From assembly GCA_016699385.1 (NCBI GenBank), contig CP064974.1, positions 806,791 to 870,790 of the forward strand: a stretch of 64,000 nucleotides of DNA, read 5' to 3'. Of the stretch, positions 2,118 to 50,242 are shown piece after piece (within the stretch, counting starts at the first letter, position 1; the number at the start of each line of letters is the position of its first letter). A program made the position numbers and the translations under genes. The notes beneath the pieces are model-generated. The model saw only the letters and a list, made by a program, of their open reading frames with translations, did no database searches and was not told the DNA's origin. Origin of the DNA: Candidatus Moraniibacteriota bacterium (lineage in GTDB: Bacteria > Patescibacteriota > Minisyncoccia > Moranbacterales > UBA1568).

Positions 2118-2317
2118 TTCAAGTCCTTCAGCATATTAGTGTATCATAATACCGTAAAAAAGAGTAAAAGTCAATAAAGAAACTTGTGGATTCTCGTGAA
2201 TACGAGATATCTACCAAATTAGAGCTCCCCATTTTTTCCAAAAAAAGAATTCCCTATTCCTTGCCAATAAGCAATCCCTCCCGTATACTCCCAACGAAAT
2301 TTCACTCTTCCTTTTCT

Positions 2318-3429
2318 ATGAACGATGATATATTTCTCCACTGCCTCGGAAAAATCCCCGGAGTCGGCGCCGAAAAACTCCGCAAGATAGCCATCGCTTT
2401 CGACACATTTGAAACAGCATGGCATGCGCCACTCGAAGAATTTCTCAGTGCCGGAATTCCACACAAACTCGCAGAAACAATTGCAAAAGAGCGAAAGCAT
2501 CTTTCCCCAGAGAAAGAATCCGAGATACTCGAAAAACACTCTATCCGTCTCATCTCCAGAGAAAGCGATGATTATCCGACACTTCTCGCAGAAATCCCAA
2601 ACCCGCCACAACTTCTCTATCTTCGAGGGAATGCACTTCTCAATAGGCACCCGTTTCTCACCGTCGTTGGCACAAGGAAACCGACCGAATACGGAGCGGG
2701 CATTGCCAGAGAATTTGCGAGCGAACTTGCGAGAAGCGGCATAACCGTTGTCTCCGGCATGGCACTCGGCATCGACAAGGCAGCACATCAAGGCGCACTC
2801 GAAGGTAATGGCGAAACCATCGCCGTACTCGGCAACGGACTCGATGACGCTTCAATTGCGCCGCGGACCCACCTCGATTTGGCACACACCATCAGTCTTC
2901 ATGGCGCACTTCTCTCGGACTATCCACCAGGAACCAGCGCCTCCGAAGGAACCTTCCCCGCAAGGAATCGTATCATGGCCGGCATGTCCCTTGGCACAGT
3001 GGTTATTGAAGCATCGGAAAAAGTGGCACGCTGATTACTGCCAATCTTGCACTCGATTTCAATCGAGAAGTTTTTGCAGTGCCAGGTTCAATCTACTCCG
3101 AAAATTCCCGCGGTCCCCACGCGCTCATCAAAAAGGGCGCCATCCTCACCGCAAGTCTTGCTGACATTCTCGATGCGCTCCCCCTCTCGCGCGAACACGA
3201 AGAACACGGAACACTCTTTGAAACAACCTCTCTCCCGCAACCAAATCTTTCCGTCGACGAAGAACGCCTTCTCAAAATCTTAGGAAGTGATACCATGCAC
3301 ATTGACGCTATCGTAAAACACTCTACACTGGAGACATCGAATGCACTTTCTGCGCTCGCCTTTCTCGAAATGAAAGGTTTAGTAAAAAATATCGGCAACA
3401 TGCATTATATAAGAACGTATCGAGTATAA
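2318..3429 (+). pseudogene. dprA: DNA-processing protein DprA/Smf, interrupted by a -1 frameshift in an A5 run (3018-3022); pseudogene or sequencing error
   Basis: ORF 2186..3034 encodes the DprA Rossmann core (VVGTRKPTEYG...VVSGMALGIDKAAHQGAL) and stops at TGA 3032-3034. Reading from 3022 in the -1 frame continues without a stop as SGTLITANLALDFNREVFAVPGSIYSENSRG...LIKKGA (ORF 3079..3429), which is the canonical DprA continuation. An A6 rather than A5 run would restore a single ~370-aa protein. Start set at MNDDIFLHCLGKIPGVG (2318); the upstream in-frame ATG at 2186 is possible. Confidence 0.7.
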
Positions 3430-16233: not shown

Positions 16234-16650
16234 ATGTCTATGACATTTTCCCATCCGGCTATGAATCTACAGAAAAAGAAACCGATTATCTTCACAGCGC
16301 TCTCGAAAAAATACTTCTACATGAGAATGCTGATCGTGAAATATGTTTTGGAGAATGAAAGTGTACCAATCAATCCATTCATGTCATTCGACTACTATCT
16401 TGCAGATACCGTTGAGAGAAACATAATCCGAAACGCCAACAATAATCTCGTAGCACTCGCAGACGAACTCTGGGTATTCGGATCAATAAGTAACGGCGTC
16501 ATGGCAGAAATACGACAAGTTCAGAACATGAAAAAACCCATTCGTTTTTTCACCATAGAAAACGATCAAGATATTACAGAAATTTCAAGAGACAGGCTCG
16601 TTTTCGAAGACGGTATGGAAGCATTTAAAAAAGAGCTGAAGGATCTATGA
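16234..16650 (+). CDS. small Rossmann-like protein, nucleoside 2-deoxyribosyltransferase/DNPH1-like (NDT-like; possibly DUF4406), paralog of 17975..18373
   Basis: 138 aa. Motifs PIIFTALSK...DYYLADTVERN...LVALADELWVFGSISNGVMAEIRQVQNMKKPIRFF resemble NDT-family (YxAGPxF ... aDxvvA ... DsGTxfExG ... KP). Clear paralogy with the minus-strand gene at 17975..18373. Alternative start at 16261. Confidence 0.6.
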   Translation: MSMTFSHPAMNLQKKKPIIFTALSKKYFYMRMLIVKYVLENESVPINPFMSFDYYLADTVERNIIRNANNNLVALADELWVFGSISNGVMAEIRQVQNMKKPIRFFTIENDQDITEISRDRLVFEDGMEAFKKELKDL

Positions 16651-17616
16651 TTCAAAAAGTCCTCCTTGCTTCCCCACGCGGGTTTTGCGCTGGTGTCGCG
16701 CGCGCGGTGAAGACGGTCGAGGATACGCTCGATATTTTCGGGGCACCCGTCTATATCAAGCACGAAATCGTCCACAACAAAACAGTGGTCAAGAATCTCG
16801 AAGATCGCGGTGCAATTACCGTCGATAGCGCCGAATCGATACCAGAACACTCCGTAGTCGTCTTCTCCGCACATGGTTCTCCGCCCGAAGACTACGAAAT
16901 CGCACACGCAAAAAATTGCACCGTGATTGACGCGACATGCCCCCTCGTCAACAAGGTTCATCTCGAAATGCACCGCTTCTTGAAAGATGGTTTCTCTGTC
17001 ATCTATATCGGCCACAAGGGTCACCCCCGAAGGAATCGGTGTCACTGGTGAATCGCTTCACGCGTACCACAAAGTCGTCCCCATTATCGAAAATGTCACC
17101 GACATCAAGTTGCTCAATTTTAGAAAGGACGAAAAAATAGCATACCTCACGCAGACAACACTGAGCGTCACGGAGACGGAAGATATCATTCGCGCACTCA
17201 CAGAAAAATATCCAAACATCACAGCGCCGCCCGGAAAGGATATCTGCTACGCAACCACCAATCGACAATCCGCCGTTCGCGCACTCGCAAAAGTTTCCGA
17301 TATCGTGCTCATCGTCGGCTCGAAAAATTCGTCCAACTCCACCCGCCTCGCTGAAACCGCACGCGCCGAGAATATCCCCGCCTACCTCATAGACAGTGCA
17401 AATGACATTGATTCCACATGGCTCGAAGGTATCGCAACGATTGGCGTAAGCGCCGGCGCGAGCGCTCCTGAATCAAGGGTCCAGGAAATCGCCCGGTATT
17501 TCGAAAATTTCGGTGCAATCACTGAGGAATTTACGACTATACATGAAACTACTCGATTCGCAGAACCGCTAGAACTCACAGCAATCAAGAAAAGGCATCG
17601 TTCCGAAAAATTATGA
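16647..17616 (+). pseudogene. ispH: 4-hydroxy-3-methylbut-2-enyl diphosphate reductase IspH/LytB, interrupted by a +1 frameshift in a C5 run (17044-17048); pseudogene or sequencing error
   Basis: N-terminal ORF 16647..17051 (SPRGFCAGVARAVKTVE...YIGHKGHP) and C-terminal ORF 16987..17616 (EGIGVTGESLHAYHKVV...TTNRQSAV...GSKNSSNS). Conserved IspH reads GHKGHPEGIG, so a C4 rather than C5 run would restore a single ~322-aa protein. Confidence 0.75.
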
Positions 17617-28081: not shown

Positions 28082-28949
28082 CAGTCCATGTCTGACTCAC
28101 ATCTGATTTCGGCGAAAAAAGCGAAATATACGCCATAATACAGACATACCAAGAAACAGCAAGTGGACGCTTTAGAAAAGACAGCGTGAGATGCTTCGCA
28201 AGGAGCGTCTTTGGATACCGATATTCCGCAAGAACCGCATCAGCGCCGTATTCATCTCGGAACAGACTCTGCGAAGAAAGAAACCGTCGACTCTGATTCT
28301 CATGATCACGCAGTGACTCAGGAACGCGTATAGCAATAGCTGCATCACGAGTCGAGGTATATCGAAATCCAAATTTCTTCACCAAGAGATACGAGTAAGC
28401 ATCTTCCCCGACACTTTCTCGAAAACGAAATTTCTCAAAAAATCTTCGAGAAAACGCGCGAGCGGCTCCATGACATTGGTAAATATTGTTCCCACTGTTC
28501 CATTCGGAGAACATATCGCACTTCAATTTATGTCCAGCCACAATGGCATATCCAAAGGCATTTCTCGGTGGAAGCGCGCGAAGCTCCGGAGAGACAAGAT
28601 CAGCACCCTCTCGAATACAACGAATCATTGTCTCAAATACCGAATCGTCCAAGAGAACAATATCAGCATCGAGCAAGATAACCGCATCCGAATCTTGAGA
28701 CATATTGAACACTTCATTCAAACGCTCCGACTTCCCCTTGCGCTGACCATCATCAAACACACATACTCCAGAGGATTCATATCGCTTGGCAATAACTGCC
28801 GTCTCATCCAAGCTCCCATCAGAAATCACCACAATTTTATCAAGAACGAACGAGTCGCATCGTTGCTTCAAGACATCTTCAAGCAAGAACGCAATATTTG
28901 CTTCTTCGTTATATGCTGCTATCCCAACAGTGACAGAAAATGTCCTCAT
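28053..28949 (-). CDS. glycosyltransferase family 2
   Basis: VGIAAYNEEANI...VISDGSLDET...LDADIV (DxD). The 4-nt start/stop overlap with the downstream giant gene indicates translational coupling. Confidence 0.85.
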   Translation of the reverse strand: MRTFSVTVGIAAYNEEANIAFLLEDVLKQRCDSFVLDKIVVISDGSLDETAVIAKRYESSGVCVFDDGQRKGKSERLNEVFNMSQDSDAVILLDADIVLLDDSVFETMIRCIREGADLVSPELRALPPRNAFGYAIVAGHKLKCDMFSEWNSGNNIYQCHGAARAFSRRFFEKFRFRESVGEDAYSYLLVKKFGFRYTSTRDAAIAIRVPESLRDHENQSRRFLSSQSLFRDEYGADAVLAEYRYPKTLLAKHLTLSFLKRPLAVSWYVCIMAYISLFSPKSDVSQTWTVASSSKNVR

Positions 28950-31900
28950 AGTGGTCGATTTTCATCTCGTACAGAAACCACCTCGAGCAGTTGTGCACTC
29001 GATAGATTCCAGTCAAACCTTTCCGCCCATTCCCTTGCAGAAATATTCATATTCAATCGAAGCTCGCGATCCCGAATAAGCAGTAGTATCTTTTCTGCAA
29101 AGGCATCAGCATCTCCATAGGGAACAAGGAATCCAGAATGAGGGTTTTTCACCGAATCACGCAAACCAGGAACATTGGAAGCGATAACTGGTGTACCACA
29201 GGCATTTGCCTCTATAGCAACAATTCCCCAACCCTCCATCATTGATGGATTTACAAGCATCCATGATTCTTGCAGAAGTTTCTTTTTCTCCTCTTCAGAA
29301 ACACGCCCGAGAAATTCTACATGATCTGTCCCAAGTCGAAGTGTTTCAAATGCCAATCGTTTAAGATTCATTTCATCATCGCCATCCCCGGCAATAATAA
29401 GCTTTGACTCCGGACGCTCAGCAACAACCATCTTGAACGCATGGAGAAGTACACCAACTGATTTATATGCTTTGAGTCGCCCGAGGTAAAGAAGCGTTGG
29501 TCGGTCGGATTTCTGTTCTACTGGAACGAAGTCATCAAGATGCACTCCAGGATGAACAACGCTGATTCCCGCCTTACCAATACCAAGAAGCTCCATCTCA
29601 TGTTGACTCGACTGCGACACAGTGACAAAAGGAGCTTTCGAATATACGAGAGGCATCATCGTCTTCTCTAGAAAGCTCGCGAGAAACGCCAGCGGCTTTG
29701 GAAGGAATTGAAAAAACACTTCCTGATGCACATGATGAAGTAGACACACTACTGGCTCCTTTACATAGAGCGGCGTGAAAAACGGAATGCCGTTTTCACA
29801 ATCGATAATCACATCAAATTTCCCGCGAAACCGCGCAAAATAATAGATAACTGCCCACACATAAACCAGATAGAATCCACCACGTCGCACGATGCGAATA
29901 CCATGTCGCGTCTCATGACGCGATTGATGCCCGTCATTTCCACAAAACATTGTCACTGAATTTCCATCAGCCACCCAACGCTTCGCAATTTCCTCGACAT
30001 AGACCTCGGCACCTCCGCCATAAGCATGCTTTGTATCTCGCCAATTGAAAATAAGGACTCGCTTCCCCTGAAGAGGAGCAGTCTCTTCCGGAAAACGACC
30101 TCGAAATGCATCAAGAAAATCTCGAACGGCTCGTTCAAAAAATCGAAAAGATGGCTCCGCAATATGAAGGGCGCTCAATAAGATCCACCCGCAAAGACTC
30201 GAAAGAAAGACGCTGTCTACAATATGGTCAAGCGATGAATGAAATAGAATAATGCCTATCGCTTCTGCTCCCGACATGAGAAGTGCTGCGAAAACGAAAA
30301 TGTATTGCTTTCGAGCCAAATGGTAGGTGACAATAATCGTTGAAAGCGTAAAGAAGGCAATGGCAATGGTGTACATAGGAAGGAACTGCAAAACCGCAGA
30401 AACTTTCCCACCAAAAAGAAACATCGATAAAGCTCCATCAAAAAACCCAAGCAAAACAACACTTCCAGCAACAACACAAGCAGAAAGTCCGTAGATGATC
30501 CAAAATATATTTTTCGTTCCCTTTCCAAGCCCTCTATTTCTCCCTACAAAAGTCACCATGAACATGTTTGGCATGGTGCCCAGGAAGAAAATTACCTTCC
30601 CAACCAACGAAAGAAGTGCGTACTCCCCAGCACCACGCTCAGACATGAAGTGCTTTGCCAATAGCACATCCACAGTCGTAAACATCGCCGTTGATACCGT
30701 CACAAGAATAGCTGCGGAGAAAAATTCCAATGGAAACGTTCTGGACTGAGGAGCATTCAGAAGAGATTTTCCTGCACCGGGAATAAGAAAAAACGAGGAA
30801 AATGCAGCAAGAATTACACTCACAGGAATCGACAGGTAAACATACTCATGCAAACCAGAAAACACGAAGCCTAGAGCAATAATCAGCTTACTTCCTGCTT
30901 CAACAAGAGAAAGAATTGCCGCCGCCCGAAATCGAAGCGCCCCCTGAAGATATCCGAAATTTCCAAATGCCAGGAGCCCACCAGCCAGAAGTGGCGCAAA
31001 CGAAAACAGAAGAAGAACATCGCCTACATGGAAAAATCGCGACAGTGCCGGGACAGCAAAGAGCCAAAGCGCTGTCACAAAAACAGACGCAATGAGCCCA
31101 ATCCGCATAATAGACGCCCAGAATACAAGCGCTTCCTTCTCACCATTTCTCGCAGAAAGATACGAGACTTCCCGATTGATTGTTGTTGAAAATGGACTAA
31201 TGAAAACAAGGGCGAGATACCAAAGTGTATTCAGAAGTGCAATCATCCCAAGCGTCTCGAACGACAACATTCTTCCCAAAAAGGCATTAAACGCAAAGTT
31301 CAGTACATTGGAAAGAAATGTCGCAATGACGAAAAGTCCTTCCGCAGAAAATGCAAAGTCCAAAATTGGCCGTGTATATTCTCGAGAAGAAAACTTCCGA
31401 AGTAAGGCACCAATAGACCGAGATTGTCCGGAAATCCAAGAAAATGTATTGGAAAAATATCTCAAAACTCCACGAGTACCCCTTTGCAAAGAAGTTGCAA
31501 AAAAATTCTCCGGCGACACCCGTATCGATGGCCCCAATACTTTCTCAACTTTTTTCTCTGAAGCGCCATCAAGAGTTTTCTTTTTTCGCTTCAACAAATG
31601 AAGTCCATGCGTCGTCTTCTCCCAATAGTGCGGTTTCACGAGAAGCTGATATGCCGCCATCACTGCCGCAACTGATACCAGAAGCCAGTAGAATGGAATA
31701 AGAAATACCCATTTCATAAGCTCCCACTTCTCCCGCTTGGCACACCCGATCATGTAGTAGTACATCGCGAGGAAGTTTCCGAAGATAAGCGAAACAACGG
31801 CCATGTAAAAAACCACCGGCGGATAGAGTGCCTCAATAGCTGGACCGACAACCGGACGAAAAGCAAAATACAAAATCGTCTGAAGCCACAAGAGTGGATT

Positions 31901-33763
31901 GATAAGCATGAAAGCAATCTTCCCTCCCACGACAAATTGAAAGAGGAGTGCGTGTATGCCGTTGTCACGGAAGAATTTCCCCGGTTGGCGCATATGGACC
32001 AGATATGTCTGCATATACCCCTTGATCCATCGCGACCGCTGGCGAATCCAATTCCCCACCTTGCTATTTGCTTCTTCGAGCGTCACCGAGTCTATGATGG
32101 CGGTCCGATGTCCGCGCGTAAAAATCCGCGCACCCAAATCGCAATCTTCCGTCACATTGAATGGATCCCACCCCTCGAGCGCGAGAAGATCTTCGCGGCG
32201 GAAGTGATTGCTCGTACCGCCTAGAGGAATAGACGTTGCAACGGATTGTAGTCCTGGGAGCGTCACATCAAACCACAGCGAATATTCCGCCGTGAAGAGC
32301 CGCGTCAAGATATTTTGATTGGCATTGAAATAGTTGAGCTTTGCCTGCAAACACCACACATCACGCGAGAGCGTCTGGAAACCGAGATACGCTTTCTTGA
32401 GTTGGAGCGGATCGGGAATATCCTCTGCATCATAGATCACGACATACTCGCCGCGCGTCATTGAGAGACCGTAATTGCACGCTTTTGGTTTCGTCTTCGG
32501 CTCGGAATGCGGCACCACGACTATGCGAACAAATGAGGGGAGATTCATCTCCGTTGCCGCATCTATAGTTTCCTGGTCGTTTTCCTCGAGAAGGAGGAGC
32601 GCCTCGAGTTTTTCCTTTGGCCAATCAATCTTCCCAATTGCATCGAGAAATCCCGGGAGAATATGCGCCTCCCGATAGAGCGGACACAGTATGGAATACA
32701 AAGGAAGCTGCTCATCACGAAGCGTGGCAAGCTCTTCGTCCGAAAAAGAAACTTCCGGTGGCTTCTTGAGACTGCGCACCACAAAGAAGGCGTTGAAGAG
32801 CACGTCGAGGAAATAGATACTCGTCAGTATCGCCGTCACCGCAATGAGCGTTGATATCGGACGAAGCAATACGCCCACTACAAATGCAAGCGCAATGCTA
32901 ATCACAACTATTTTCTGCCACGATACAAACGTATGGAGTGCGGATGAATGATGCGCGAGCGTCGAGTGCGTGACGAATCGCTTTCGATTGTGAGCAACTC
33001 CCGCTCCGAGCATACCTTGAACCTTCCCAGCACCAACCGTTTCCGGATGAATACGAAGTGGCGCTCTCTCGCGAAAGCGCAATTTTACTGCATTCCATCC
33101 AATTTCGCGGATTGCCTTCCAGAAAACAATTTTCGATTCCCCCGACGTCCGCTCAGCAAAGGCAATGGTCTGTCCGCCGATTTCATAGCCATAGTTCCGC
33201 GCCGTAAGCAGAAATTCCAAGTCGAATGTCCACGGATCGGGAGTAATCTTCACCTCATGGGCAACGCGCGCCCGAAACACCTTCATGCCCGACTGCACAT
33301 CAACATCGAGACCGTGCAAAAATCGAGAGAAAACGAGTGCAAAACCGCGACTCAAAACTCTCCGGAGAAGACTCGTCTCGCGCTCAATTCGATTGGCAAC
33401 GACAATATCAAACCCGTGATGCAACTTTGCGCACATATCCGGCAGCGCCTCAGGAGGATACTGCAAATCAGCATCAATCATGGCAATCGTCTCGAAGTGT
33501 GCATAATCGAATCCTTCAAGTATCGAGTATGCTTTTCCGCGATTGCCTTTTTTGAGATGAAAAAAAACAGGATACGTCTTTGAAAGTTTTTCAACTTCTG
33601 TCCGTGTCCCGTCTGTCGAATGATCATCGATAAAAATCACCTCGTATTCGATATCCGCCGCACGAAAAGATACGTCAACACGGCGGACCAAGTCCGCCAC
33701 ATTGCCCTCCTCGTTCAATGTCGGCACCAAAACCGAGATTCGCTCCCGTAGCATGAACTTCAC
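28946..33763 (-). CDS. 1605-aa multidomain glycan-assembly protein: GT2 (GtrB/DPM1-like) - TM - processive GT2 (QxxRW) - polytopic MOP/Wzx-like membrane domain - GT4
   Basis: aa 1-240: LVPTLNEEGNV...FIDDHSTDGT...IDADLQYPP (polyprenol-phosphate GT2). aa ~350-700: DAED...QRSRWIKGYMQT (synthase-type GT2). aa ~760-1180: more than 12 hydrophobic helices. aa ~1200-1605: GT4 (KRVLIFNW...EGWGIVAIEANACGTPVIAS). A single uninterrupted ORF. Confidence 0.85.
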   Translation of the reverse strand: MKFMLRERISVLVPTLNEEGNVADLVRRVDVSFRAADIEYEVIFIDDHSTDGTRTEVEKLSKTYPVFFHLKKGNRGKAYSILEGFDYAHFETIAMIDADLQYPPEALPDMCAKLHHGFDIVVANRIERETSLLRRVLSRGFALVFSRFLHGLDVDVQSGMKVFRARVAHEVKITPDPWTFDLEFLLTARNYGYEIGGQTIAFAERTSGESKIVFWKAIREIGWNAVKLRFRERAPLRIHPETVGAGKVQGMLGAGVAHNRKRFVTHSTLAHHSSALHTFVSWQKIVVISIALAFVVGVLLRPISTLIAVTAILTSIYFLDVLFNAFFVVRSLKKPPEVSFSDEELATLRDEQLPLYSILCPLYREAHILPGFLDAIGKIDWPKEKLEALLLLEENDQETIDAATEMNLPSFVRIVVVPHSEPKTKPKACNYGLSMTRGEYVVIYDAEDIPDPLQLKKAYLGFQTLSRDVWCLQAKLNYFNANQNILTRLFTAEYSLWFDVTLPGLQSVATSIPLGGTSNHFRREDLLALEGWDPFNVTEDCDLGARIFTRGHRTAIIDSVTLEEANSKVGNWIRQRSRWIKGYMQTYLVHMRQPGKFFRDNGIHALLFQFVVGGKIAFMLINPLLWLQTILYFAFRPVVGPAIEALYPPVVFYMAVVSLIFGNFLAMYYYMIGCAKREKWELMKWVFLIPFYWLLVSVAAVMAAYQLLVKPHYWEKTTHGLHLLKRKKKTLDGASEKKVEKVLGPSIRVSPENFFATSLQRGTRGVLRYFSNTFSWISGQSRSIGALLRKFSSREYTRPILDFAFSAEGLFVIATFLSNVLNFAFNAFLGRMLSFETLGMIALLNTLWYLALVFISPFSTTINREVSYLSARNGEKEALVFWASIMRIGLIASVFVTALWLFAVPALSRFFHVGDVLLLFSFAPLLAGGLLAFGNFGYLQGALRFRAAAILSLVEAGSKLIIALGFVFSGLHEYVYLSIPVSVILAAFSSFFLIPGAGKSLLNAPQSRTFPLEFFSAAILVTVSTAMFTTVDVLLAKHFMSERGAGEYALLSLVGKVIFFLGTMPNMFMVTFVGRNRGLGKGTKNIFWIIYGLSACVVAGSVVLLGFFDGALSMFLFGGKVSAVLQFLPMYTIAIAFFTLSTIIVTYHLARKQYIFVFAALLMSGAEAIGIILFHSSLDHIVDSVFLSSLCGWILLSALHIAEPSFRFFERAVRDFLDAFRGRFPEETAPLQGKRVLIFNWRDTKHAYGGGAEVYVEEIAKRWVADGNSVTMFCGNDGHQSRHETRHGIRIVRRGGFYLVYVWAVIYYFARFRGKFDVIIDCENGIPFFTPLYVKEPVVCLLHHVHQEVFFQFLPKPLAFLASFLEKTMMPLVYSKAPFVTVSQSSQHEMELLGIGKAGISVVHPGVHLDDFVPVEQKSDRPTLLYLGRLKAYKSVGVLLHAFKMVVAERPESKLIIAGDGDDEMNLKRLAFETLRLGTDHVEFLGRVSEEEKKKLLQESWMLVNPSMMEGWGIVAIEANACGTPVIASNVPGLRDSVKNPHSGFLVPYGDADAFAEKILLLIRDRELRLNMNISAREWAERFDWNLSSAQLLEVVSVRDENRPL

Positions 33764-40170: not shown

Positions 40171-40689
40171 ATGAATCAAACATCCAAAAAACTCCGCATC
40201 GGCTGGTTCACATTCACCTGTTGCGAGGACAGCACCGTGATTTTTACCGAGCTCATGAACGACCATTTTGAAGTATGGCGGAAAGTGCTCGATATTCGTC
40301 ACGCACGCGTCCTCCAAACCAAAAATGTGCTCGACGAACTCGACGTCGCCTTCATCGAAGGATCAATCAATTCCGAAGAGCAAGAAGAAAAACTCAAAGA
40401 GATTCGCGCCAAATCTACAAAACTCGTCGCGATTGGCGCCTGCGCCTGTACGGGCATGCCAAGCGCTCAGCGCAATGCCTTCCCACCCGAACTCAAAGAC
40501 AAAATTAAATTTCTCCTCGACCGATTCAACCAAGGTGAAAAAGTCAAAAAGCTTGACGAAGTCGTCACGGTCGACGAACGAGTCCAAGGATGCCCTATGA
40601 TCGAAGCCTCCTTCCTCGCCGTCGTCAACAAAATGCTCGTCGAATTCGGAATTATTCCAGCAGAAGCAGAAGCAAAAAATCCCGAATAA
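40171..40689 (+). CDS. [NiFe]-hydrogenase small subunit, reduced form (proximal Fe-S cluster only)
   Basis: KLRIGWFTFTCCEDS...DVAFIEGSINSEEQEEKLKEIRAKSTKLVAIGACACTG...GCPM. Colinear with the group-3b HydD N-terminal half, but with tandem Cys (CC) instead of CxxC, and it ends shortly after GCP (172 aa). The ORF opens at 40066. Confidence 0.75.
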   Translation: MNQTSKKLRIGWFTFTCCEDSTVIFTELMNDHFEVWRKVLDIRHARVLQTKNVLDELDVAFIEGSINSEEQEEKLKEIRAKSTKLVAIGACACTGMPSAQRNAFPPELKDKIKFLLDRFNQGEKVKKLDEVVTVDERVQGCPMIEASFLAVVNKMLVEFGIIPAEAEAKNPE

Positions 40690-40759
40690 GACCGCGCGCG
40701 CATCCAGTAAACTTCCTCCAAATTCTTCTTCGTTCCCCATCTCCTATCCTCTCCATCCT

Positions 40760-42136
40760 ATGCATCAAATATCCGAACTCAGTCAATTCAGCATCGAAGA
40801 GCTCACCAAAGTCGAAGGTGCGGCTGGCATGAACGTGTTTATCGAAAACGGCACGGTCAAAAAAGTGGAATTCGCCATCAAGGAATTCAAGCGTTTCTAT
40901 ACGCACGCCATGGAAGGAAAGCCTATTGCTGCGATTCCTCAGCTCCTCGCGCGTATCTGTGGCACATGTTCCAATGCGCATTTGGTCGCAAGTATCGAGG
41001 CTGTCGAGAAAACTCTCGGCATCGTGCCGAGCGAGCAAACCATGCTCCTGCGCACCCTCACCTATCACGGACTCATCATCCGCGATCACGCACTCCACCT
41101 CTACCTCTTCTGTCTCCCTGATTTCTTTGGCAAAGATTCTCTCCTCGGCTTTGACGATGACGATCCCATTCAACACCAACTCCTCCACGATGCCTTTGCG
41201 GTCAAAGCGGCCGGCAATCATCTCGCAATTGCTGTCGCTGGTCGAAGTGTCCATGCGCCACTCCCTATGCCAGGTGGCTTCGGAAAAATTCCGGATACAA
41301 AAGCGCTCACCGAAGTCATCATAGAACTCGAGAATATCCGTCCAGCAGTACTTCGTCTCATCAAGGTCTTTACCGATGACCCCTCATCACTCATAAGAAA
41401 AAGCAATTACGCCGCACTCAGAAATAGCAAATTTTCTTATCTCGAAGGCGACCTCTGGGATATGAAAGGCTTCGTTGTTGATGAAGCAGGCTACCGTGAT
41501 CATCTCGAACACGTCGTCCTCCCCTATTCCCAAGCCTCAGCCTATACCTTCGATGGTGAAACCTATCGTGTTGGCGCGATTGCCCGACTCAATATCAATA
41601 GCTCCGGTCTCCACCCGCGCACCAAACACGATGCAGCGGAAGCGCTCGCTCTTTTCCCGTCCGACAATATCTTCCACAACAATCTCGCCCAAGCAATCGA
41701 AATCCTCCACTCCGTCGACGAGTCAATAGACTTTTTGAAACAAAAGACTTTCGTTTCCGAGCCGGCACAGAAAATCATTCCAAAGGCCGGCATCGGTGTC
41801 GGATTGGTCGAGGCGCCACGTGGCGCGCTCTATCACAAACTCGAAGTAAACGACAAAGGCATCGTTGAGCGTGGCGAAGTCGTCGTTCCGACGGGTCAGA
41901 ATCAAATCGCGATCGAGCTCGACCTTATCCAGTTCATCAATGAGCACATGGACATGGAAGAAGCGCAGATGAAGCTCGAATGCGAAAAAATCATCCGCGC
42001 TTATGATCCCTGCATGAGCTGCGGCGCCCACTTCCTCGAACTCAAAGTAAGTAAAAATGGCAAACCGCTGAAGAAAATTCTTTCAAAACCCATAAAGAAA
42101 ACTTCAGCAAAAAAGCACAGCCATCATCACGAGTGA
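40760..42136 (+). CDS. [NiFe]-hydrogenase large subunit (group 3-like) with a C-terminal extension
   Basis: L1 motif RICGTCSNAH near the N-terminus. L2 motif DPCMSCGAH followed by a ~32-aa tail (FLELKVSKNG...HSHHHE) of the kind removed by the maturation endopeptidase. Confidence 0.9.
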   Translation: MHQISELSQFSIEELTKVEGAAGMNVFIENGTVKKVEFAIKEFKRFYTHAMEGKPIAAIPQLLARICGTCSNAHLVASIEAVEKTLGIVPSEQTMLLRTLTYHGLIIRDHALHLYLFCLPDFFGKDSLLGFDDDDPIQHQLLHDAFAVKAAGNHLAIAVAGRSVHAPLPMPGGFGKIPDTKALTEVIIELENIRPAVLRLIKVFTDDPSSLIRKSNYAALRNSKFSYLEGDLWDMKGFVVDEAGYRDHLEHVVLPYSQASAYTFDGETYRVGAIARLNINSSGLHPRTKHDAAEALALFPSDNIFHNNLAQAIEILHSVDESIDFLKQKTFVSEPAQKIIPKAGIGVGLVEAPRGALYHKLEVNDKGIVERGEVVVPTGQNQIAIELDLIQFINEHMDMEEAQMKLECEKIIRAYDPCMSCGAHFLELKVSKNGKPLKKILSKPIKKTSAKKHSHHHE

Positions 42137-42266: not shown

Positions 42267-42710
42267 TCATCCCTCAGATATTGCAATCACGCGCTTTCCC
42301 GAAAGAAAGGCAATCACACAAATCATAGGGGAAAACACCACCAAGGAAGCTATGAATTTAGATTCATCAGCAGGTTCAGCAAAAAAATAAAGCGCTGTCA
42401 AAATTTCGAAAATCACGAACGATAAGAGAGCTTCTCGAACGACTATCCCAGAGAAAAATAGAAATGAATCATTCCGAAGCCAATGCTTCTTCCCCTTCCG
42501 ACTGACAGTAAGGTGAAAAGAACTAAGAGTCGAAGAGGAGAGGATGCTGAAAATAAGCCAGTCGAAACGAGCATACTTCGTATGATCTCCAGGAAAGATA
42601 GAAAACACAAAAATCCCAGAGATGACTACTGTCAAAAAAGCAGCTACAAAGAAAACCCGACTGGAAAAAATACTCCCAGACATATCGACATTAATCATAA
42701 CAGCCTCCAA
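42267..42710 (-). CDS. hypothetical membrane protein
   Basis: 147 aa with 3-4 hydrophobic helices. Last gene of the minus-strand operon that also contains the hydrogenase protease. Confidence 0.45.
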   Translation of the reverse strand: MEAVMINVDMSGSIFSSRVFFVAAFLTVVISGIFVFSIFPGDHTKYARFDWLIFSILSSSTLSSFHLTVSRKGKKHWLRNDSFLFFSGIVVREALLSFVIFEILTALYFFAEPADESKFIASLVVFSPMICVIAFLSGKRVIAISEG

Positions 42711-42716
42711 TTTTTG

Positions 42717-43136
42717 CTAACAAAGAACTTCCGAAAGCTCCCGAGACACAGCAGTGAGAGCAACACTTTCGGCAATCCCTTCCGGCACGCCGAGAATTTG
42801 CGGTTCAAAGGACGGGTCGAGCTTCTTGGCGAGAAGCAAGAGTGTCGAGAGATCGTAGTCATGCGCCGTCATGCCGGCATTGCGGGATCGGGCGATGTCA
42901 TCAATCGAAAGCCACGCTACTTCGTCGAGTCCTCGAACCGTATCGAGAATAGCCCATTTTCCCCGCTTCGGCAAGTCTATTTCATTGGGGTCTTCGATTA
43001 CAAAGTGCGCATGTGGAAATCGATCCCGCAATTGTGGCACGAGAATTACCGGAAGGTTATCCAAGAGTAAATCCGGATTGCCAAACACCGATACGGAAAA
43101 CGCCGCTCTATTTTTTTCGCTCATAGGCATTGGCAA
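42717..43136 (-). CDS. hydrogenase maturation endopeptidase (HycI/HybD family, peptidase A31)
   Basis: 139 aa. VFGNPDLLLDN...DTVRGLDEVAWLSIDD...HDYDLSTLLLLAK...ILGVPEG is colinear with HybD/HycI (GxGN, D, H motifs). Confidence 0.75.
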   Translation of the reverse strand: MPMPMSEKNRAAFSVSVFGNPDLLLDNLPVILVPQLRDRFPHAHFVIEDPNEIDLPKRGKWAILDTVRGLDEVAWLSIDDIARSRNAGMTAHDYDLSTLLLLAKKLDPSFEPQILGVPEGIAESVALTAVSRELSEVLC

Positions 43137-43851
43137 AGGCGATACTTTTCTGTGTATACGCGCGAAGTCGCGTCACTGTTTGTTCCGAAAGCGTCTCACA
43201 TGGCACACCCCAATGAATGGATATCCATGCGCCGGGCGCAAGAAGATCGATATCGATATCGGCAGAGAGATCTCGCACAAGCCGACGAGAAACCGGCAAA
43301 CCGAGTGAGAAAACGCCATGATCATCTCGGCTAAGTGGCTCAATAAGCACATCGATAAACGGTCCCGAAACAGTGAGCACTTTCCCCCAACTCACGATAC
43401 ACTCGGCAACCGCTGTCCAATCATCATCGTGAAGCAACTCATGTTGCGTCTCGCGCCACACATTGAGCACATGAAATGAATGGTGCGGGAAGCCGCCTCG
43501 AACCACCTTCTGCCCGATAGTATCAAAACGCTCCCGCCCCGTTTTCTTCTTCACATCGAGCGCATCAAGAAGCCCCAGATACTTCTTTGGCGAAAACGTA
43601 TCAAGCAAACGATTCCCAATCCAGTATGCCTCAACAACTCCATCATCAAACGGGTCTCGAATACCATTCCCTTCCGCAATGTGCAAGAGGTACGGATAGA
43701 GATTTTGGAATCGCTCAAGGATAGCCGAAAGCCGTGGATCACTCTCACCCGCATCCAGATATTCTTTCATTGTCTTATTTGCATCGGGTCCGCAGTAATG
43801 CAACCGATTCGGCCCAAACGCATACCGACTACATCGAAACACTCCATCCAT
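43108..43851 (-). CDS. conserved hypothetical protein (overlaps and is co-oriented with the hydrogenase protease gene)
   Basis: 247-aa ORF. Its stop overlaps the protease start by 29 nt. No family recognised. Confidence 0.5.
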   Translation of the reverse strand: MDGVFRCSRYAFGPNRLHYCGPDANKTMKEYLDAGESDPRLSAILERFQNLYPYLLHIAEGNGIRDPFDDGVVEAYWIGNRLLDTFSPKKYLGLLDALDVKKKTGRERFDTIGQKVVRGGFPHHSFHVLNVWRETQHELLHDDDWTAVAECIVSWGKVLTVSGPFIDVLIEPLSRDDHGVFSLGLPVSRRLVRDLSADIDIDLLAPGAWISIHWGVPCETLSEQTVTRLRAYTQKSIAFANAYERKK

Positions 43852-43945: not shown

Positions 43946-44311
43946 TCAAGACGATGCCACCGCTCTCGTTATAAGAATATGAACATCCTTGCCACACTGA
44001 TTTATCCTCTCCAAAACAGCCTCCTTGCCTATAAAGTAACTAGCAAATATTTCCCGCTCACACTGTATCACAAGCTCGTTAGCCTGCCCCTCCAATAAAA
44101 CGAGTTCTCTTCGTGTAAGCCGCGTGTCACAGCCAACGCATCCATAGTGATCACTGTTATCAAAAACATCCCCAAGAGAACTCAGCAATTGATCCGTGAG
44201 CCGACGCAATTTCCCAAGCGCCGCTAATGTTGCCACAGCAGGATCCTTATCGAAATTCGACACAACTGGAACCTGACCAAGAGGAAAAATTTGACTAGAA
44301 GCTGAATGCAT
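43946..44311 (-). CDS. hypothetical protein with a CxxC motif
   Basis: 121 aa. HYGCVGCD plus two further Cys residues. No family recognised. Confidence 0.4.
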   Translation of the reverse strand: MHSASSQIFPLGQVPVVSNFDKDPAVATLAALGKLRRLTDQLLSSLGDVFDNSDHYGCVGCDTRLTRRELVLLEGQANELVIQCEREIFASYFIGKEAVLERINQCGKDVHILITRAVASS

Positions 44312-46250: not shown

Positions 46251-48161
46251 CTATTCTCCAAGGAGACTCTTGAGAAGCGTATTCAGCCGCAGAGAAGCTA
46301 CACCTACCACACGATCAGCCCCACCATAATAGATAAACACTCTTCCATTTTGGAGTGTTGCTCCGCATGGGAAGACCACATTTGGCACAATGCCGATTTT
46401 TTCATACTCCATTTCCGGCTCAAAGAGTGGCGTATCACTCCGCGCGAGTACACGCTCCGGATGATCGATATCCAGAAGCGCCGCACCCAAACGATAGACA
46501 GATCCCTCACTTGAGACACCGTGATACAGGAGAAGCCATCCGCTATCCGTCCGAATAGGCACTGTGTTCAATCCGATTTTTTGGTCATCCCACATGCCCT
46601 GCCGAGGAAGAATAAACGGGCTCTGTGACAGCATCGCTCCATCTGAAAATTCCAAATCATCAAAAAAATTGATATCTATCGACGGCTGTATCCGATGAAG
46701 CACTACATATTTCCCATGAATCTTTTCCGGAAAAACACAAGCATCCTTATCATCGATGCCTGGCGGAGATATGAGTTTTGGCAGCGACCAACAACTCCAC
46801 TGCCGTGCAAGGAAGTCCTTTCGCACGATGGAAGTCAGTGCGACACGAGGAGCATTCACCCCATCTACCGCCGTATAGAGCATATATATTGTGTCATCGA
46901 TGCGAGTGAGTCGAGGATCTTCACATCCGGAATACCCGCCACCAGCACGCATTTCAAACGACTCTCGAGGCACATACGCCGGCTCCAAACTCCGTTCATC
47001 AATCGTCATGCCATCACGACTCGATGCATATCCCAAAACCGACGCGTCCCCATTCGAAAGCGCGCGATACAAAATATGTGTCTTCCCACCATCGCGAATC
47101 GCTCCCGGATTGAATACTCCTTTCGCTTCCCAGGCATGTTCCGGAATCGGCAAAAGAACAGGGTTTTTGGGCACACGCTCAAAAGAAACTTTCTTGTCTG
47201 GATAGGTAAGCGCTCGAAGTAATTTCTTCACATCACACGTCGCCACGCAACACGTCGAGTCTGCCGCACCGTAGTAAAGAAACAGCTTCCCTCGCCGGAT
47301 GAGTGCACCAGACGGAAACACAATGTTTGGAACCTTCCCATACAGTTCATATTCTTCCTCAGGAACAAGAAGTGGTGCCGTTGTTCGTGCAAGAATTTTC
47401 CGAGGATCATCCCGGTCAAGAAGCACTGCCTCAACACCAAAAATTTTCCGTTCAGTAAAATAATTCCGTATATGTGAATACACTAAGAGCCAGCCATCCG
47501 ACGTCAAGACGGGTGACGCTCCGATTTCAACATGATCAGTATCCCCTCTCTGGAGACGAATCTCATGTGTCTGAAGGCTTGAATACCATGCATTCCAATG
47601 CGCTTCCGACCACATATCTTCCACGCGATCAAACAGGGCGAGTCCGATAGTTGATGGCGGTCGATCGGTATTCGCCGTCAATATCGCTGCAAATTTCCCT
47701 TTCACCTTCTCCGGAAACAGCGTCATCGCCTTCGCATTAAAAGGCGTCACAAGATGTTTCTCATCTATTCTTCGCAAATTCTTCGAAAGCGCAACAGCCA
47801 CCTTGATGCCCTCTGCCGAGAAAGGATAAGTCGACAGCGCCGTGTAGAAAATAAAGTATGTCCCGTCTATTTCCGTGACGCGCGGATCCTCACAACCAAA
47901 TCGCTCCCACGATTCCTCAGGAACGATAAGCCGTCGGTGCTTTTCGAAATGAATTCCATCAGCACTCGTCGCATGCCCAATTGAAGACACTTCGTATGTT
48001 TCGCCCTCATGCAACACGCGTGACGATTGTGCTCGATACACCAGATCCGTCCATTTCTCTCTTCGCACCGGACAGCCGTTAAATGCCGCGGATCGTTCCC
48101 AGAAATTTTCACTTTCCCCTACCAAAATCGGATTCTCATTTGATCGTTCCACTCGAATCAT
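46251..48161 (-). CDS. glycoside hydrolase family 130 protein with two tandem GH130 domains (beta-mannoside phosphorylase-like)
   Basis: Both halves carry GH130 hallmarks (GCEDPRVTEIDGTYFIFYTA / GCEDPRLTRIDDTIYMLYTA; NIVFPSG / NVVFPCG; YYGAAD / YYGGAD). Confidence 0.8.
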   Translation of the reverse strand: MIRVERSNENPILVGESENFWERSAAFNGCPVRREKWTDLVYRAQSSRVLHEGETYEVSSIGHATSADGIHFEKHRRLIVPEESWERFGCEDPRVTEIDGTYFIFYTALSTYPFSAEGIKVAVALSKNLRRIDEKHLVTPFNAKAMTLFPEKVKGKFAAILTANTDRPPSTIGLALFDRVEDMWSEAHWNAWYSSLQTHEIRLQRGDTDHVEIGASPVLTSDGWLLVYSHIRNYFTERKIFGVEAVLLDRDDPRKILARTTAPLLVPEEEYELYGKVPNIVFPSGALIRRGKLFLYYGAADSTCCVATCDVKKLLRALTYPDKKVSFERVPKNPVLLPIPEHAWEAKGVFNPGAIRDGGKTHILYRALSNGDASVLGYASSRDGMTIDERSLEPAYVPRESFEMRAGGGYSGCEDPRLTRIDDTIYMLYTAVDGVNAPRVALTSIVRKDFLARQWSCWSLPKLISPPGIDDKDACVFPEKIHGKYVVLHRIQPSIDINFFDDLEFSDGAMLSQSPFILPRQGMWDDQKIGLNTVPIRTDSGWLLLYHGVSSEGSVYRLGAALLDIDHPERVLARSDTPLFEPEMEYEKIGIVPNVVFPCGATLQNGRVFIYYGGADRVVGVASLRLNTLLKSLLGE

Positions 48162-48382
48162 ATCGTTTCAGTTATGAAAACAATTCCACAAAAACAATCT
48201 CCACATTGAACACAGACAAAGAAATATTTGAGGAGGCTATCACGGTTATGAAAACCTAAAAATGAAAGTTTCTTTCGCTTCTTTTTGCTGTTCGAAACAG
48301 AGAAACTTACCTGCCAAGCCCCGCAACTCTTTCTTCAGCGCGCCAAATATGGAAATATTCGAAAAAACTACCAATCCTCATT

Positions 48383-50242
48383 CTATTCATCTCCTAACTT
48401 CACATACCTTGTTGGTACCACCTTGTTGGCATGGAGGAGCGATTCGAGCAGGCGAGCAATAGGCACCGTCGCCACGCACGTCACCGTATCTGCGCTTCCA
48501 TAGTATACAAAAAGTGTCTCATCCTTCACAACTGCACCGCAGCTATAGACTATCTGCGGTTTCGAGCCCTCGTTCTCATACCAAACCTTCGGCTCGAGAA
48601 TGGGCGCTTTTGATCGAGCAATCACTTTGGTTGGATCTTTCTTGTCAAGAATCATTGCCCCAAGCTTGTACCCGCAATCCCGTGTCGTCGCATGATAGAG
48701 CACAAGCCAACCCGCTTTCGTTTTTAGAGGAGATGGCCCAACACCCCGAACCAACAGTTCCCAGCGTCCCTTGAGTGGCACTTTTACATGATCACTTCGA
48801 ATAAACGTATTCCCGTCAAAATCAAGATTGTCAAAATAATCGACGCGTACCTCGGGACTAATACTATGAAGAATAGCAAATTTCCCATGAATCTTCTCAG
48901 GGAAAATCGTCCAGTTCTTGTGTATCTCACCGGGTGGCGAAATCATCACCGGTCGCGACCAGTTCCACTTCCGCGAGAGAAAGTCGTCAACCGAAATTTT
49001 TGTAAGCGCCACGCGCGGAAAATTATATCCATCAAATGCCGTGTACGTCATGTAGAGCATATCATCAACACGTGTCACTTTCGGATCTTCACTTCCACCC
49101 CACCCACCGCCAGAAGTATATGGGGTCGAGCACTGTTCCTGAATCCTTGTCACGCGCACGTCATCGAGCGTAGGTGAAGAAATATAAATAGGAACATCAA
49201 GCCGTTCATGCACCGAGAACCCGTCTCGACTGTTGGCATACCCAACCGTCGACAAACCATTCGTGCCAATAGCGCGATAAAGAATATGCACCATGCCATC
49301 ATCGGAAAGAAATGCCGCCGGATTGAAGACTTCTCCTGACTCCCAGTTATGTTCCTTTCGAGAGGTAAGAATAGGATTCCCTGGATAGCGTTCGAGTTTT
49401 ACGCCATCCGGAATCACCGAAACCGTAGCATTTCGAGAAACTTTCCAAAATTGTGCAATTTCTTCAACAAAAAGTTTCCCATCAACGCTCCAATACAACA
49501 ATACCTTCTTCGCACGCGGGACAGCGCCGATAAATCGAATGTCTTTGCTCTGCCATGAGTCCGGAGACTCCCACATTGCCTCCTCTGATCGCCAAAGTAC
49601 CGTCTGTGGATTGCTCTTCTCTACCAATGCCGAACCGATAACCCATCGACCATCTCTATTTTCCGAGGCATACATGATAAGAATTCCCTTCCCAGCAGAG
49701 ATTACAGCAACGACATTCATCGGACCTTCATCGAAATATCCCTCCCGCGGTTTGAGAAGTGTCGTCCGTTTGACATTCCAATGTTTCAAGTCGGTCGAGA
49801 GCGCCAATTTGATACTGCGCTCACCAAAAAAAAGCCCGTAATGAGCTTCACTCCCTTCTTGTAAAGCAACAGCAATTCCTGTTTCGCGAAAACCATCCTT
49901 CACAGAAAGACTATCCCATTCGACACCGTCACGGGATGTGCCGGACAATATCTGAACACCTCCGCTGCGCGCTCTTTTCTTGTATGAAATAAAAAATGAA
50001 TCGCCAGAAGCATTTAGTGATGAAATGCGAAAAACATCCGAGATATCCGGATGCAAGCGAAGACTCCCTAAAAGTTTTGTAAAAACAAGCTCCTTTCGCG
50101 TCGAGTCGAAAGAAACGCCATTCGAACTACTCAAAACAAAAATAGGACGATTTGCCTTCCCTTCTACATCACGCACGTAGAGATACACTGTTTGTCCAAC
50201 CGACGAAACCCCAAGAACCAAACGGTCCAAAGAACGTTCCAT
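48383..50242 (-). CDS. GH130 family protein (C-terminal GH130 domain plus N-terminal beta-propeller-like domain)
   Basis: C-terminal half GSEDPKVTRVDDMLYMTYTA...IVYSCGAV...YYGSAD is paralogous to 46251..48161. Confidence 0.8.
   Translation of the reverse strand: MERSLDRLVLGVSSVGQTVYLYVRDVEGKANRPIFVLSSSNGVSFDSTRKELVFTKLLGSLRLHPDISDVFRISSLNASGDSFFISYKKRARSGGVQILSGTSRDGVEWDSLSVKDGFRETGIAVALQEGSEAHYGLFFGERSIKLALSTDLKHWNVKRTTLLKPREGYFDEGPMNVVAVISAGKGILIMYASENRDGRWVIGSALVEKSNPQTVLWRSEEAMWESPDSWQSKDIRFIGAVPRAKKVLLYWSVDGKLFVEEIAQFWKVSRNATVSVIPDGVKLERYPGNPILTSRKEHNWESGEVFNPAAFLSDDGMVHILYRAIGTNGLSTVGYANSRDGFSVHERLDVPIYISSPTLDDVRVTRIQEQCSTPYTSGGGWGGSEDPKVTRVDDMLYMTYTAFDGYNFPRVALTKISVDDFLSRKWNWSRPVMISPPGEIHKNWTIFPEKIHGKFAILHSISPEVRVDYFDNLDFDGNTFIRSDHVKVPLKGRWELLVRGVGPSPLKTKAGWLVLYHATTRDCGYKLGAMILDKKDPTKVIARSKAPILEPKVWYENEGSKPQIVYSCGAVVKDETLFVYYGSADTVTCVATVPIARLLESLLHANKVVPTRYVKLGDE

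Follow-up and report, generated by a model that had tools for sequence, protein, structure and literature searches.

Can a [NiFe] hydrogenase work with a small subunit cut down to its first domain and with no gene for an electron partner beside it, and if so, where would its electrons go? This question is raised by a two-gene locus in a 64-kb stretch of a Candidatus Moraniibacteriota genome (contig CP064974.1; the whole stretch is called the window below, and all coordinates are window positions). The two genes encode the small subunit (SSU) and the large subunit (LSU) of a [NiFe] hydrogenase. We think it probable that this enzyme is a plug-in H2-activating core, served by NAD(P)H or ferredoxin partners that vary between lineages, and that the partner of the window enzyme is encoded elsewhere in the genome.

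The enzyme type is already known. Jaffe et al. 2020 (BMC Biol 18:69, PMC7304191) divided the group-3b-related hydrogenases of Candidate Phyla Radiation (CPR) bacteria into hyd1 and hyd2. In the hydrogenase section of its main text, hyd2 has an SSU truncated to about 164 aa, no co-located beta or gamma subunits, a HypC-homologous family nearby and, in the vicinity of some of the loci, flavoproteins of PF07992 together with an Fe-S family; there its function is called “uncertain”. The window locus has the CPR host, the truncated SSU and the lack of adjacent beta and gamma genes described in that section, and is a member of the published clade; its LSU, being paired with a truncated SSU, would belong to the hyd2 subclade. 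The novelty implied by an earlier interpretation of this DNA, made without database searches (hereafter the sequence-only reading), does not stand against what that paper reports. No later use of the term hyd2 was found in the literature searched.

A small subunit with a single predicted cluster and a complete large subunit

The SSU and LSU genes are co-directional, with an intergenic gap of 70 bp. The ATG start of the SSU in the open reading frame (ORF) listing agrees with the N-termini of its homologues. Its product matches Pfam Oxidored_q6 (PF01058, 68.7 bits), the NCBIfam group-3b delta model HydD (58 bits) and, in the PDB, the delta subunit of Pyrococcus furiosus soluble hydrogenase I (SHI; E = 3.8e-12). 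The match to HydD spans positions 3-156 of 261, in agreement with the sequence-only reading, which had aligned the SSU with the N-terminal half of this model.

The SSU has five cysteines, C17, C18, C91, C93 and C141, the first two lying in a TCCEDS motif (residues 16-21). In the HMMER alignment, C18 is aligned with the leading Cys of the HydD CxxC motif and Ser21 occupies the position of the second, so that tandem cysteines do replace CxxC, as had been proposed. In an alignment of 25 sequences reaching 59% identity, exactly C17, C18, C91 and C141 were invariant among the cysteines; the block C17-C18-E19-D20-S21-T22 was also invariant, and C93 was variable. Of the 120 nearest homologues 117 have the CC motif, as do 63 of the 65 SSUs of related loci. 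The protein ends 31 residues past C141, the Cys of the GCP motif (the sequence-only reading had counted about 25). Group-3b delta subunits have about 250-260 aa, three clusters and CxxC, none of which applies to the 172-aa SSU. It consists of the flavodoxin-like proximal-cluster domain only. Since C17 and C18 are both invariant, we infer that both bind the cluster: C17, C18, C91 and C141 are the predicted ligands of a single [4Fe-4S] cluster in the proximal position, and no medial or distal cluster would be bound. No Tat signal was found in the SSU.

The LSU matches PF00374 (NiFeSe_Hases) with 96.4 bits, for a cut-off of 25.8. The two motifs of [NiFe] large subunits, RxCGxCxxxH and DPCxxCxxH, are present as L1 RICGTCSNAH (C67, C70) and L2 DPCMSCGAH (C418, C421), followed by a 34-aa tail, which confirms the sequence-only reading on this point. 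Both motifs are kept in 69 of 70 related LSUs. Judged from these four Ni-Fe ligands (C67, C70, C418 and C421), the LSU should carry a complete Ni-Fe(CN)2CO site. It is closest to group 3b references, both by NCBIfam scores (ShyA 240 and HydA 214 bits, vs 129 for VhuA and 101 for FrhA) and by PDB matches, the best being Thermococcus kodakarensis HyhL (5yxy, 206 bits) and the P. furiosus SHI alpha subunit. The top NCBIfam scores, 240 bits for the LSU and 58 for the SSU, lie far under the equivalog cut-offs of 700 and 500.

Distribution of the short small subunit

Among 5.8 billion proteins searched, 1,397 were homologous to the SSU; those listed have lengths of 159-187 aa. At least 502 matched stretches, counting one genome per GTDB species, encode an SSU relative. 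The nearest relatives belong to Ca. Moraniibacteriota and include two complete genomes of 1.05-1.09 Mb. CP064989.1 and CP064994.1 are among the complete genomes with a hyd2 locus, and the locus in CP064989.1 (L001) is syntenic with the window.

Many SSU-positive records are labelled Micrarchaeota, Pacearchaeota or Woesearchaeota, and one hyd2-type locus (L082) shares its contig with the archaeal ribosomal proteins S27e and S24e, Spt4 and Rpb7. Given these labels and this archaeal contig, the hyd2 type is therefore common to CPR bacteria and DPANN archaea. As a separate observation, many third-party annotation (TPA) “binchicken” metagenome-assembled genomes (MAGs) with a CPR-type hyd2 (L007, L009, L028, L043 and others) bear the name “uncultured Gammaproteobacteria”, “Bdellovibrionales” or “Saccharibacteria” in their titles, which look unreliable for these contigs.

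Origin of the tandem cysteines

The sequence-only reading had likened the tandem cysteines to those of NuoB and group-4 subunits. This likeness holds for the motif, which the SSU does share with them, and not for homology: the SSU family profile matches HydD at 7.6e-19, vs 0.005 for Nqo6 and 0.028 for MbhJ. The Nqo6 and MbhJ matches are limited to at most the last 37 residues, around GCP. By overall sequence the SSU thus falls with HydD, to which it is far closer, and outside NuoB and group 4.

Distant, full-length (about 250-aa) group-3-like SSUs carry xCxGC or CCxGC at this place, and short SSUs carry CCEDS, CSEDS, CDEGC or GDEGC. Because full-length relatives have CCxGC or xCxGC, the tandem motif (CC...S) is most likely descended from a CCxGC motif inside group 3 and not from NuoB. 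The simplest reading is that the truncation of the SSU and the loss of the third Cys were separate events. CSEDS, CDEGC or GDEGC variants were found in P0311, P0317 and 6 of 150 representatives, CSEDS leaving only three conserved cysteines, and the family is evidently not uniform in how the proximal cluster is ligated.

Candidate electron partners

In the window, neither the Pfam survey of about 45 ORFs nor the motif scan detected a ferredoxin, a diaphorase or an Mbh/Ech membrane module, and a six-frame scan for the Fe-S motif CxxCxxCxxxC found none in any frame. When tblastn queries from related loci, including EamA, HypC, a Pyr_redox_2 reductase, ferredoxin, an FNR-like protein and SufS were used, only those for the protease and the DUF6390 protein described below matched the window. 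Its sole flavoprotein gene is HI0933-like and lies 38 kb off. The beta (Fe-S) and gamma (FAD/NAD(P)) subunits of a group-3b operon are present neither in the 64 kb nor in L001. The sequence-only reading had noted that no diaphorase, ferredoxin, Mbh/Ech or hyp gene lies nearby; this holds across the 64 kb, except that the adjacent DUF6390 protein contains a HypC-like domain. In leaving the electron partner open, this reading was right.

Related loci offer candidates. In five of them (L032, L036, L048, L049 and L072), genes for a Fer4_15 single-cluster ferredoxin and a Pyr_redox_2/Rubredoxin_C reductase precede the SSU. The gaps along the series ferredoxin-reductase-SSU-LSU are of 3-16 bp, and the SSU appears translationally coupled to the ferredoxin and the reductase. 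Several Micrarchaeota loci have an FNR-like gene in place of these two.

Fusions were searched in a library of representatives at 50% identity. In P0314 (L082:8001-9503, on the archaeal contig), a TrxR-like Pyr_redox_2 protein is fused to a CCEDS-type SSU, and the fusion is followed by the LSU, then by a HycI-like gene. In P0317, a NuoF-like FMN/[4Fe-4S] module is fused to a short SSU, followed by the LSU, a 130-aa protein and DUF6390. These fusions suggest that direct electron transfer from a lone proximal cluster to an NAD(P)H-linked flavoprotein is possible. The sequence-only reading had called the hydrogenase “two-subunit”; given the coupled and fused flavoproteins, the active enzyme of many lineages is probably more than a dimer.

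Two distant SSU relatives have other domain combinations. P0442 (859 aa) combines response regulator, HATPase_c, SSU and Fer4 domains. P0400 combines SSU, Fer4 and [FeFe]-hydrogenase domains, and corresponds to the published hybrid 3f/3g type.

Proposed mechanism and alternatives

We propose that the product of the locus is a working [NiFe] hydrogenase of the cytosol, which descends from group 3b and has been pared down to its H2-activating core. With no medial or distal cluster predicted, electrons would enter or leave straight from the proximal cluster, to or from a docking redox protein, as in HoxY (group 3d) and in HydS of HydABCSL. To judge from the relatives, the partner would be NAD(P)H-linked and would differ by lineage, being a single-cluster ferredoxin with a rubredoxin/ferredoxin-reductase-type flavoprotein, a TrxR-like protein or a NuoF-like module. 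In the window genome it would most likely be a soluble ferredoxin, a flavoprotein or both, encoded outside the 64 kb. The enzyme would dispose of fermentative reductant as H2, probably reversibly. Its maturation would probably rely on canonical HypCDEF proteins encoded elsewhere, with assistance from the HypC fusion in DUF6390 and from the protease.

Several points weigh against this proposal. For the whole hyd2 clade, activity, cluster type and partner are all deduced from sequence. A flavoprotein is adjacent or fused in only about 15% of the sampled loci, and because most of them, the window included, have none within 10 kb, a partner for the window enzyme is an extrapolation. The TrxR-like and NuoF-like fusions may be signs of different functions rather than of one mechanism. 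Members with CSEDS, such as P0311, have three conserved cysteines and make the exact ligation of the cluster uncertain. Finally, the Pfam survey of the window detected none of hypA, hypB, hypD, hypE and hypF.

The alternative that survives best is that the enzyme is a stand-alone heterodimer. Its exposed proximal cluster would exchange electrons with a general soluble ferredoxin, for instance one reduced by pyruvate:ferredoxin oxidoreductase, and it would evolve H2 in fermentation with no dedicated partner. No partner gene was found within 10 kb in about 85% of the 80 related loci, nor in the window, and the small single-cluster ferredoxin gene placed before the reductase in the coupled operons makes a ferredoxin a plausible direct interactor. 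However, the P0314 and P0317 fusions have no intervening ferredoxin, so that the cluster can apparently pass electrons straight to a flavoprotein, and the window lacks CxxCxxCxxxC motifs. Moreover, no characterised [NiFe] hydrogenase is known to function as a dimer whose sole cluster is the proximal one. On balance we regard this alternative as possible, if rather unlikely.

Much less probable is a non-catalytic or decaying relic that does not activate H2. This would parallel the Ehr-type, group-4-like proteins of CPR bacteria, in which the metal-binding cysteines have been lost: CPR genomes are reduced, and Cys-less Ehr homologues occur in them according to the hydrogenase section of PMC7304191. 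The lack of hyp genes in the window and the probable frameshifts in its LytB and DprA genes would fit as well. Decay is nevertheless hard to reconcile with the retention of the four Ni-Fe cysteines and of four SSU cysteines across hundreds of species. In addition, both ORFs are intact, the protease and HypC-like genes are co-conserved with them, and hypDEF adjoin the locus in relatives.

We give equally little credit to a role as a sulfhydrogenase, or as an H2-sensing or regulatory hydrogenase, in place of redox balancing. The nearest characterised relatives are indeed the P. furiosus sulfhydrogenases, and the distant P0442 fuses an SSU to response-regulator and histidine-kinase ATPase domains. 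Yet P0442 is only 35% identical and retains Fer4, and no kinase or regulator is syntenic with hyd2. Sulfur reduction in characterised group 3b enzymes is linked to sulfite-reductase-like beta and gamma subunits in the same section of PMC7304191, and no such subunits were found at the sampled hyd2 loci.

Last, we dismiss almost entirely the idea that the SSU is an assembly- or frameshift-truncated version of a normal 250-aa delta subunit: two other window genes do have probable frameshifts, so that SSU integrity needed a comparative check and not an assumption, but the matching lengths of the 1,397 homologues, the invariant cysteines, the same architecture in at least 65 independent loci and two complete genomes, and the six-frame scan together rule it out. 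Because only 70 bp separate the SSU stop from the LSU start, no Fe-S domain is hidden there in another frame. The sequence-only reading had considered that an Fe-S motif in another frame would betray a truncation; none exists in the six frames, and the short SSU is real, neither a chance product nor an assembly error. As a whole, the features observed in that reading are confirmed, and the interpretation it gave is partly supported.

The two split genes of the window are as follows. LytB/IspH is split at about 17000 into overlapping ORFs in different frames (16647-17051 and 16987-17616, + strand), which cover positions 1-117 and 117-265 of Pfam LYTB; a frameshift, from an assembly error or in a pseudogene, is probable. 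DprA appears split at about 3050 into ORFs in different frames (2186-3034 and 3079-3429, + strand), one with the DNA_processg_A domain and the other with the DprA winged-helix domain, and here too a frameshift is probable.

Neighbouring genes and maturation

ORFs of 80 related loci and of the window were called, then clustered. In the recurrent order, SSU and LSU are followed on the opposite, convergent strand by a 130-aa protein, DUF6390, EamA and sometimes a 73-aa HypC. The LSU occurred 70 times, the SSU 65, the 130-aa protein 51, DUF6390 42, EamA 38 and HypC 12. By tblastn, the window has a homologue of the 130-aa protein and DUF6390, and lacks EamA and the small HypC. Features of the window locus are listed in Table 1.

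Table 1. Features of the hydrogenase locus, in window positions.
Feature	Position	Strand	Description
SSU, hyd2-type [NiFe]-hydrogenase	40171-40689	+	172 aa; PF01058 match
LSU, group-3b-like [NiFe]-hydrogenase	40760-42136	+	458 aa; PF00374 match
LSU C-terminal extension past His424	42032-42133	+	34 aa, end HSHHHE
Putative divergent hydrogenase maturation endopeptidase, HybD/HycI fold	42717-43136	-	137-139 aa; predicted fold
DUF6390 protein (PF19927)	43108-43851	-	247 aa; helical N-domain and HypC-like oligonucleotide/oligosaccharide-binding (OB) domain
HypC-like OB domain of DUF6390	residues about 148-228, nt 43168-43410	-	C-terminal ~80 residues

By sequence, the protease ORF is barely recognizable: it scores 12.8 bits against Pfam HycI (PF01750; E = 0.11, under the cut-off of 23), and its family profile matches PDB HybD at E = 0.37. 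An AlphaFold (AF2) model with a pLDDT of 80 was compared with known structures by Foldseek. The top matches were HybD 1cfz (E = 2.9e-4, TM 0.63), HycI 2e85 and T. kodakarensis HycI 5zby, with a Foldseek probability of 1.0 and TM of 0.55-0.63 across the HybD/HycI matches. The invariant residues are G19, N20, D26, D65, H92 and D93, of which D26, D65 and H92 form a candidate metal triad (E16/D62/H93 in HybD). In 51 of about 80 related loci the protease gene stands beside that of the LSU, and P0121 is 100% identical to the window protein over 137 aa. The modelled fold thus supports the 139-aa ORF as a HybD/HycI-fold maturation endopeptidase. Of the statement in the sequence-only reading that “only the endopeptidase” is present, the endopeptidase holds by its predicted fold; “only” does not, DUF6390 with its HypC-like domain being adjacent too.

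The presumed substrate of this endopeptidase is the LSU tail. In most relatives the tail has 7-10 aa (FLKVNW...), and such short tails are normal in group 3b (P. furiosus SHI alpha chains have 428 vs 424 aa). Tails of 34-35 aa with a His run were found in four related loci; three close relatives have HTHHHHG, HLPHHH and SHHHPA. The long His-rich tail is limited to this Moraniibacteriota clade, where it might serve to bind nickel.

The C-terminal domain of DUF6390 matches HypC by three methods, among them Foldseek and profile-profile comparison (93%, E = 3e-7, with Cys151 placed on HypC Cys2). Cys151 and His213 are invariant and correspond to HypC Cys2 and His51; the OB-fold, the strand-1 Cys and the His of GDxVxxHxG that define HypC/HupF (PF01455) are all there. 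In HypC the Cys is the mature N-terminal residue (MC...), whereas Cys151 is internal, after a helical domain of 150 residues. No solved relative of this N-terminal domain was found. Its invariant residues are N15, C20, G21 and H124 in 35 sequences, and H18, H123 and H127 were invariant too in an alignment of 42. DPANN loci have a shorter DUF6390 (about 166-171 aa) and a separate small HypC. DUF6390 is a candidate hydrogenase assembly chaperone. The literature searched yielded nothing relevant on DUF6390, nor on hyp genes in Patescibacteria.

In two MAGs hyp genes stand next to hyd2: Pfam-confirmed hypD, hypE and hypF lie directly upstream in the Moraniibacteriota L008 (L008:1-3764), and hypC-hypD-hypE follow the locus in another CPR genome, L048 (L048:12522-14578). 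Such an adjacency is absent within 10 kb in the other loci of about 80, and CPR HypD, HypE and HypF gave no tblastn match in the window. The two cases argue for conventional maturation, with the hyp genes of the window genome lying outside the 64 kb.

In 38 of the roughly 80 hyd2 loci the immediate neighbour of DUF6390 is a gene for an EamA-family (DMT) transporter (e.g. L018:10066-10960, L033:5439-6365 and L082:7078-8001). The Moraniibacteriota clade of the window lacks this gene, and an unrelated 121-aa ORF (43946-44311) stands there instead. One could go further and suppose that the hyd2 core, DUF6390, the EamA transporter and the divergent protease move together as a self-contained “hydrogenase kit”, passed laterally between CPR bacteria and DPANN archaea. 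DUF6390 and EamA would then provide a maturation or metal-delivery route new for [NiFe] hydrogenases. The dimer could dock onto whichever flavoprotein or ferredoxin its host has, through a bare proximal cluster whose tandem-Cys ligation arose separately from that of complex I. We consider this extended scheme doubtful.

A 147-aa, membrane-like ORF between the LSU and the protease (42267-42710, - strand) has no counterpart in related loci, L001 included, and is probably not a gene. A scan for promoters and terminators gave counts not above those expected from shuffled sequences. Elsewhere in the window, a 1,605-aa protein with several glycosyltransferase domains (28946-33763, - strand) and two tandem GH130 glycoside phosphorylase paralogues of 636 and 619 aa (46251-50242, - strand) are both kept in L001.

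Significance

Taken alone, the window locus adds one more intact and unremarkable example to a published clade. Among the [NiFe] hydrogenases of CPR bacteria, hyd2 is probably the most frequent type, and it occurs in DPANN archaea as well. A large part of microbial diversity falls in these two groups, whose members are thought to be fermentative and symbiotic; what is at stake is whether they make or consume H2, and via which redox carrier. The flavoprotein fusions and coupled operons provide concrete partner candidates, and the link between DUF6390 and HypC gives a first clue to what this domain family does.

Comparison with known systems

NuoB/Nqo6 and the group-4 small subunits (MbhJ, EchC, HycG) resemble the window SSU in their size, their single [4Fe-4S] cluster (predicted for the SSU) and their tandem cysteines. 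The NuoB cluster is ligated via a tandem-Cys motif in the context CCxxE. Similarity with the window SSU is marginal, the CCEDS context differs, and membrane subunits are lacking in the window; relatives with CCxGC point to an origin of CC independent of NuoB and group 4.

HoxY of group 3d (5xf9_C, 189 aa) and HydS of HydABCSL (7t2r_E, 179 aa) are similar in length to the window SSU. Both are reduced to the proximal [4Fe-4S] domain and pass electrons to a flavoprotein/Fe-S module. They are farther from the SSU (E = 6.6e-7 and 2.2e-5, vs 3.8e-12 for HydD), and their partner genes (HoxEFU and HydABC, respectively) are always in the operon, unlike the situation in the window. The NuoF-like fusion P0317 resembles a condensed HoxF-HoxY.

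The hybrid group 3f/3g [NiFe]-[FeFe] hydrogenases of archaea (Greening et al. 2024, PMC11216029) also use the SSU domain as a fusion module. There its fusion partner is an [FeFe] catalytic domain and HydB/C/D accompany it, which is not the case in the window.

For both subunits the best match is group 3b (P. furiosus SHI/SHII and T. kodakarensis Hyh; 9e15, 9nez, 5yxy). Like these enzymes, the window hydrogenase is predicted to be cytosolic and has the L1 and L2 motifs; the LSU tail is short in group 3b. Characterised group 3b enzymes are alpha-beta-gamma-delta tetramers with a sulfite-reductase-like beta/gamma diaphorase, and their delta subunit has 260 aa, CxxC and three clusters, whereas the window has the proximal domain, CC...S and no beta or gamma.

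Finally, nothing essential separates the window locus from the CPR hyd2 as described in the hydrogenase section of PMC7304191; they are the same entity. Compared with this main-text section, what is added here is the invariance of CCEDS, the occurrence in DPANN archaea, the recognition of DUF6390 as a HypC fusion, the conserved EamA and protease genes, the flavoprotein-SSU fusions, and hypDEF adjacent to the locus in some genomes.

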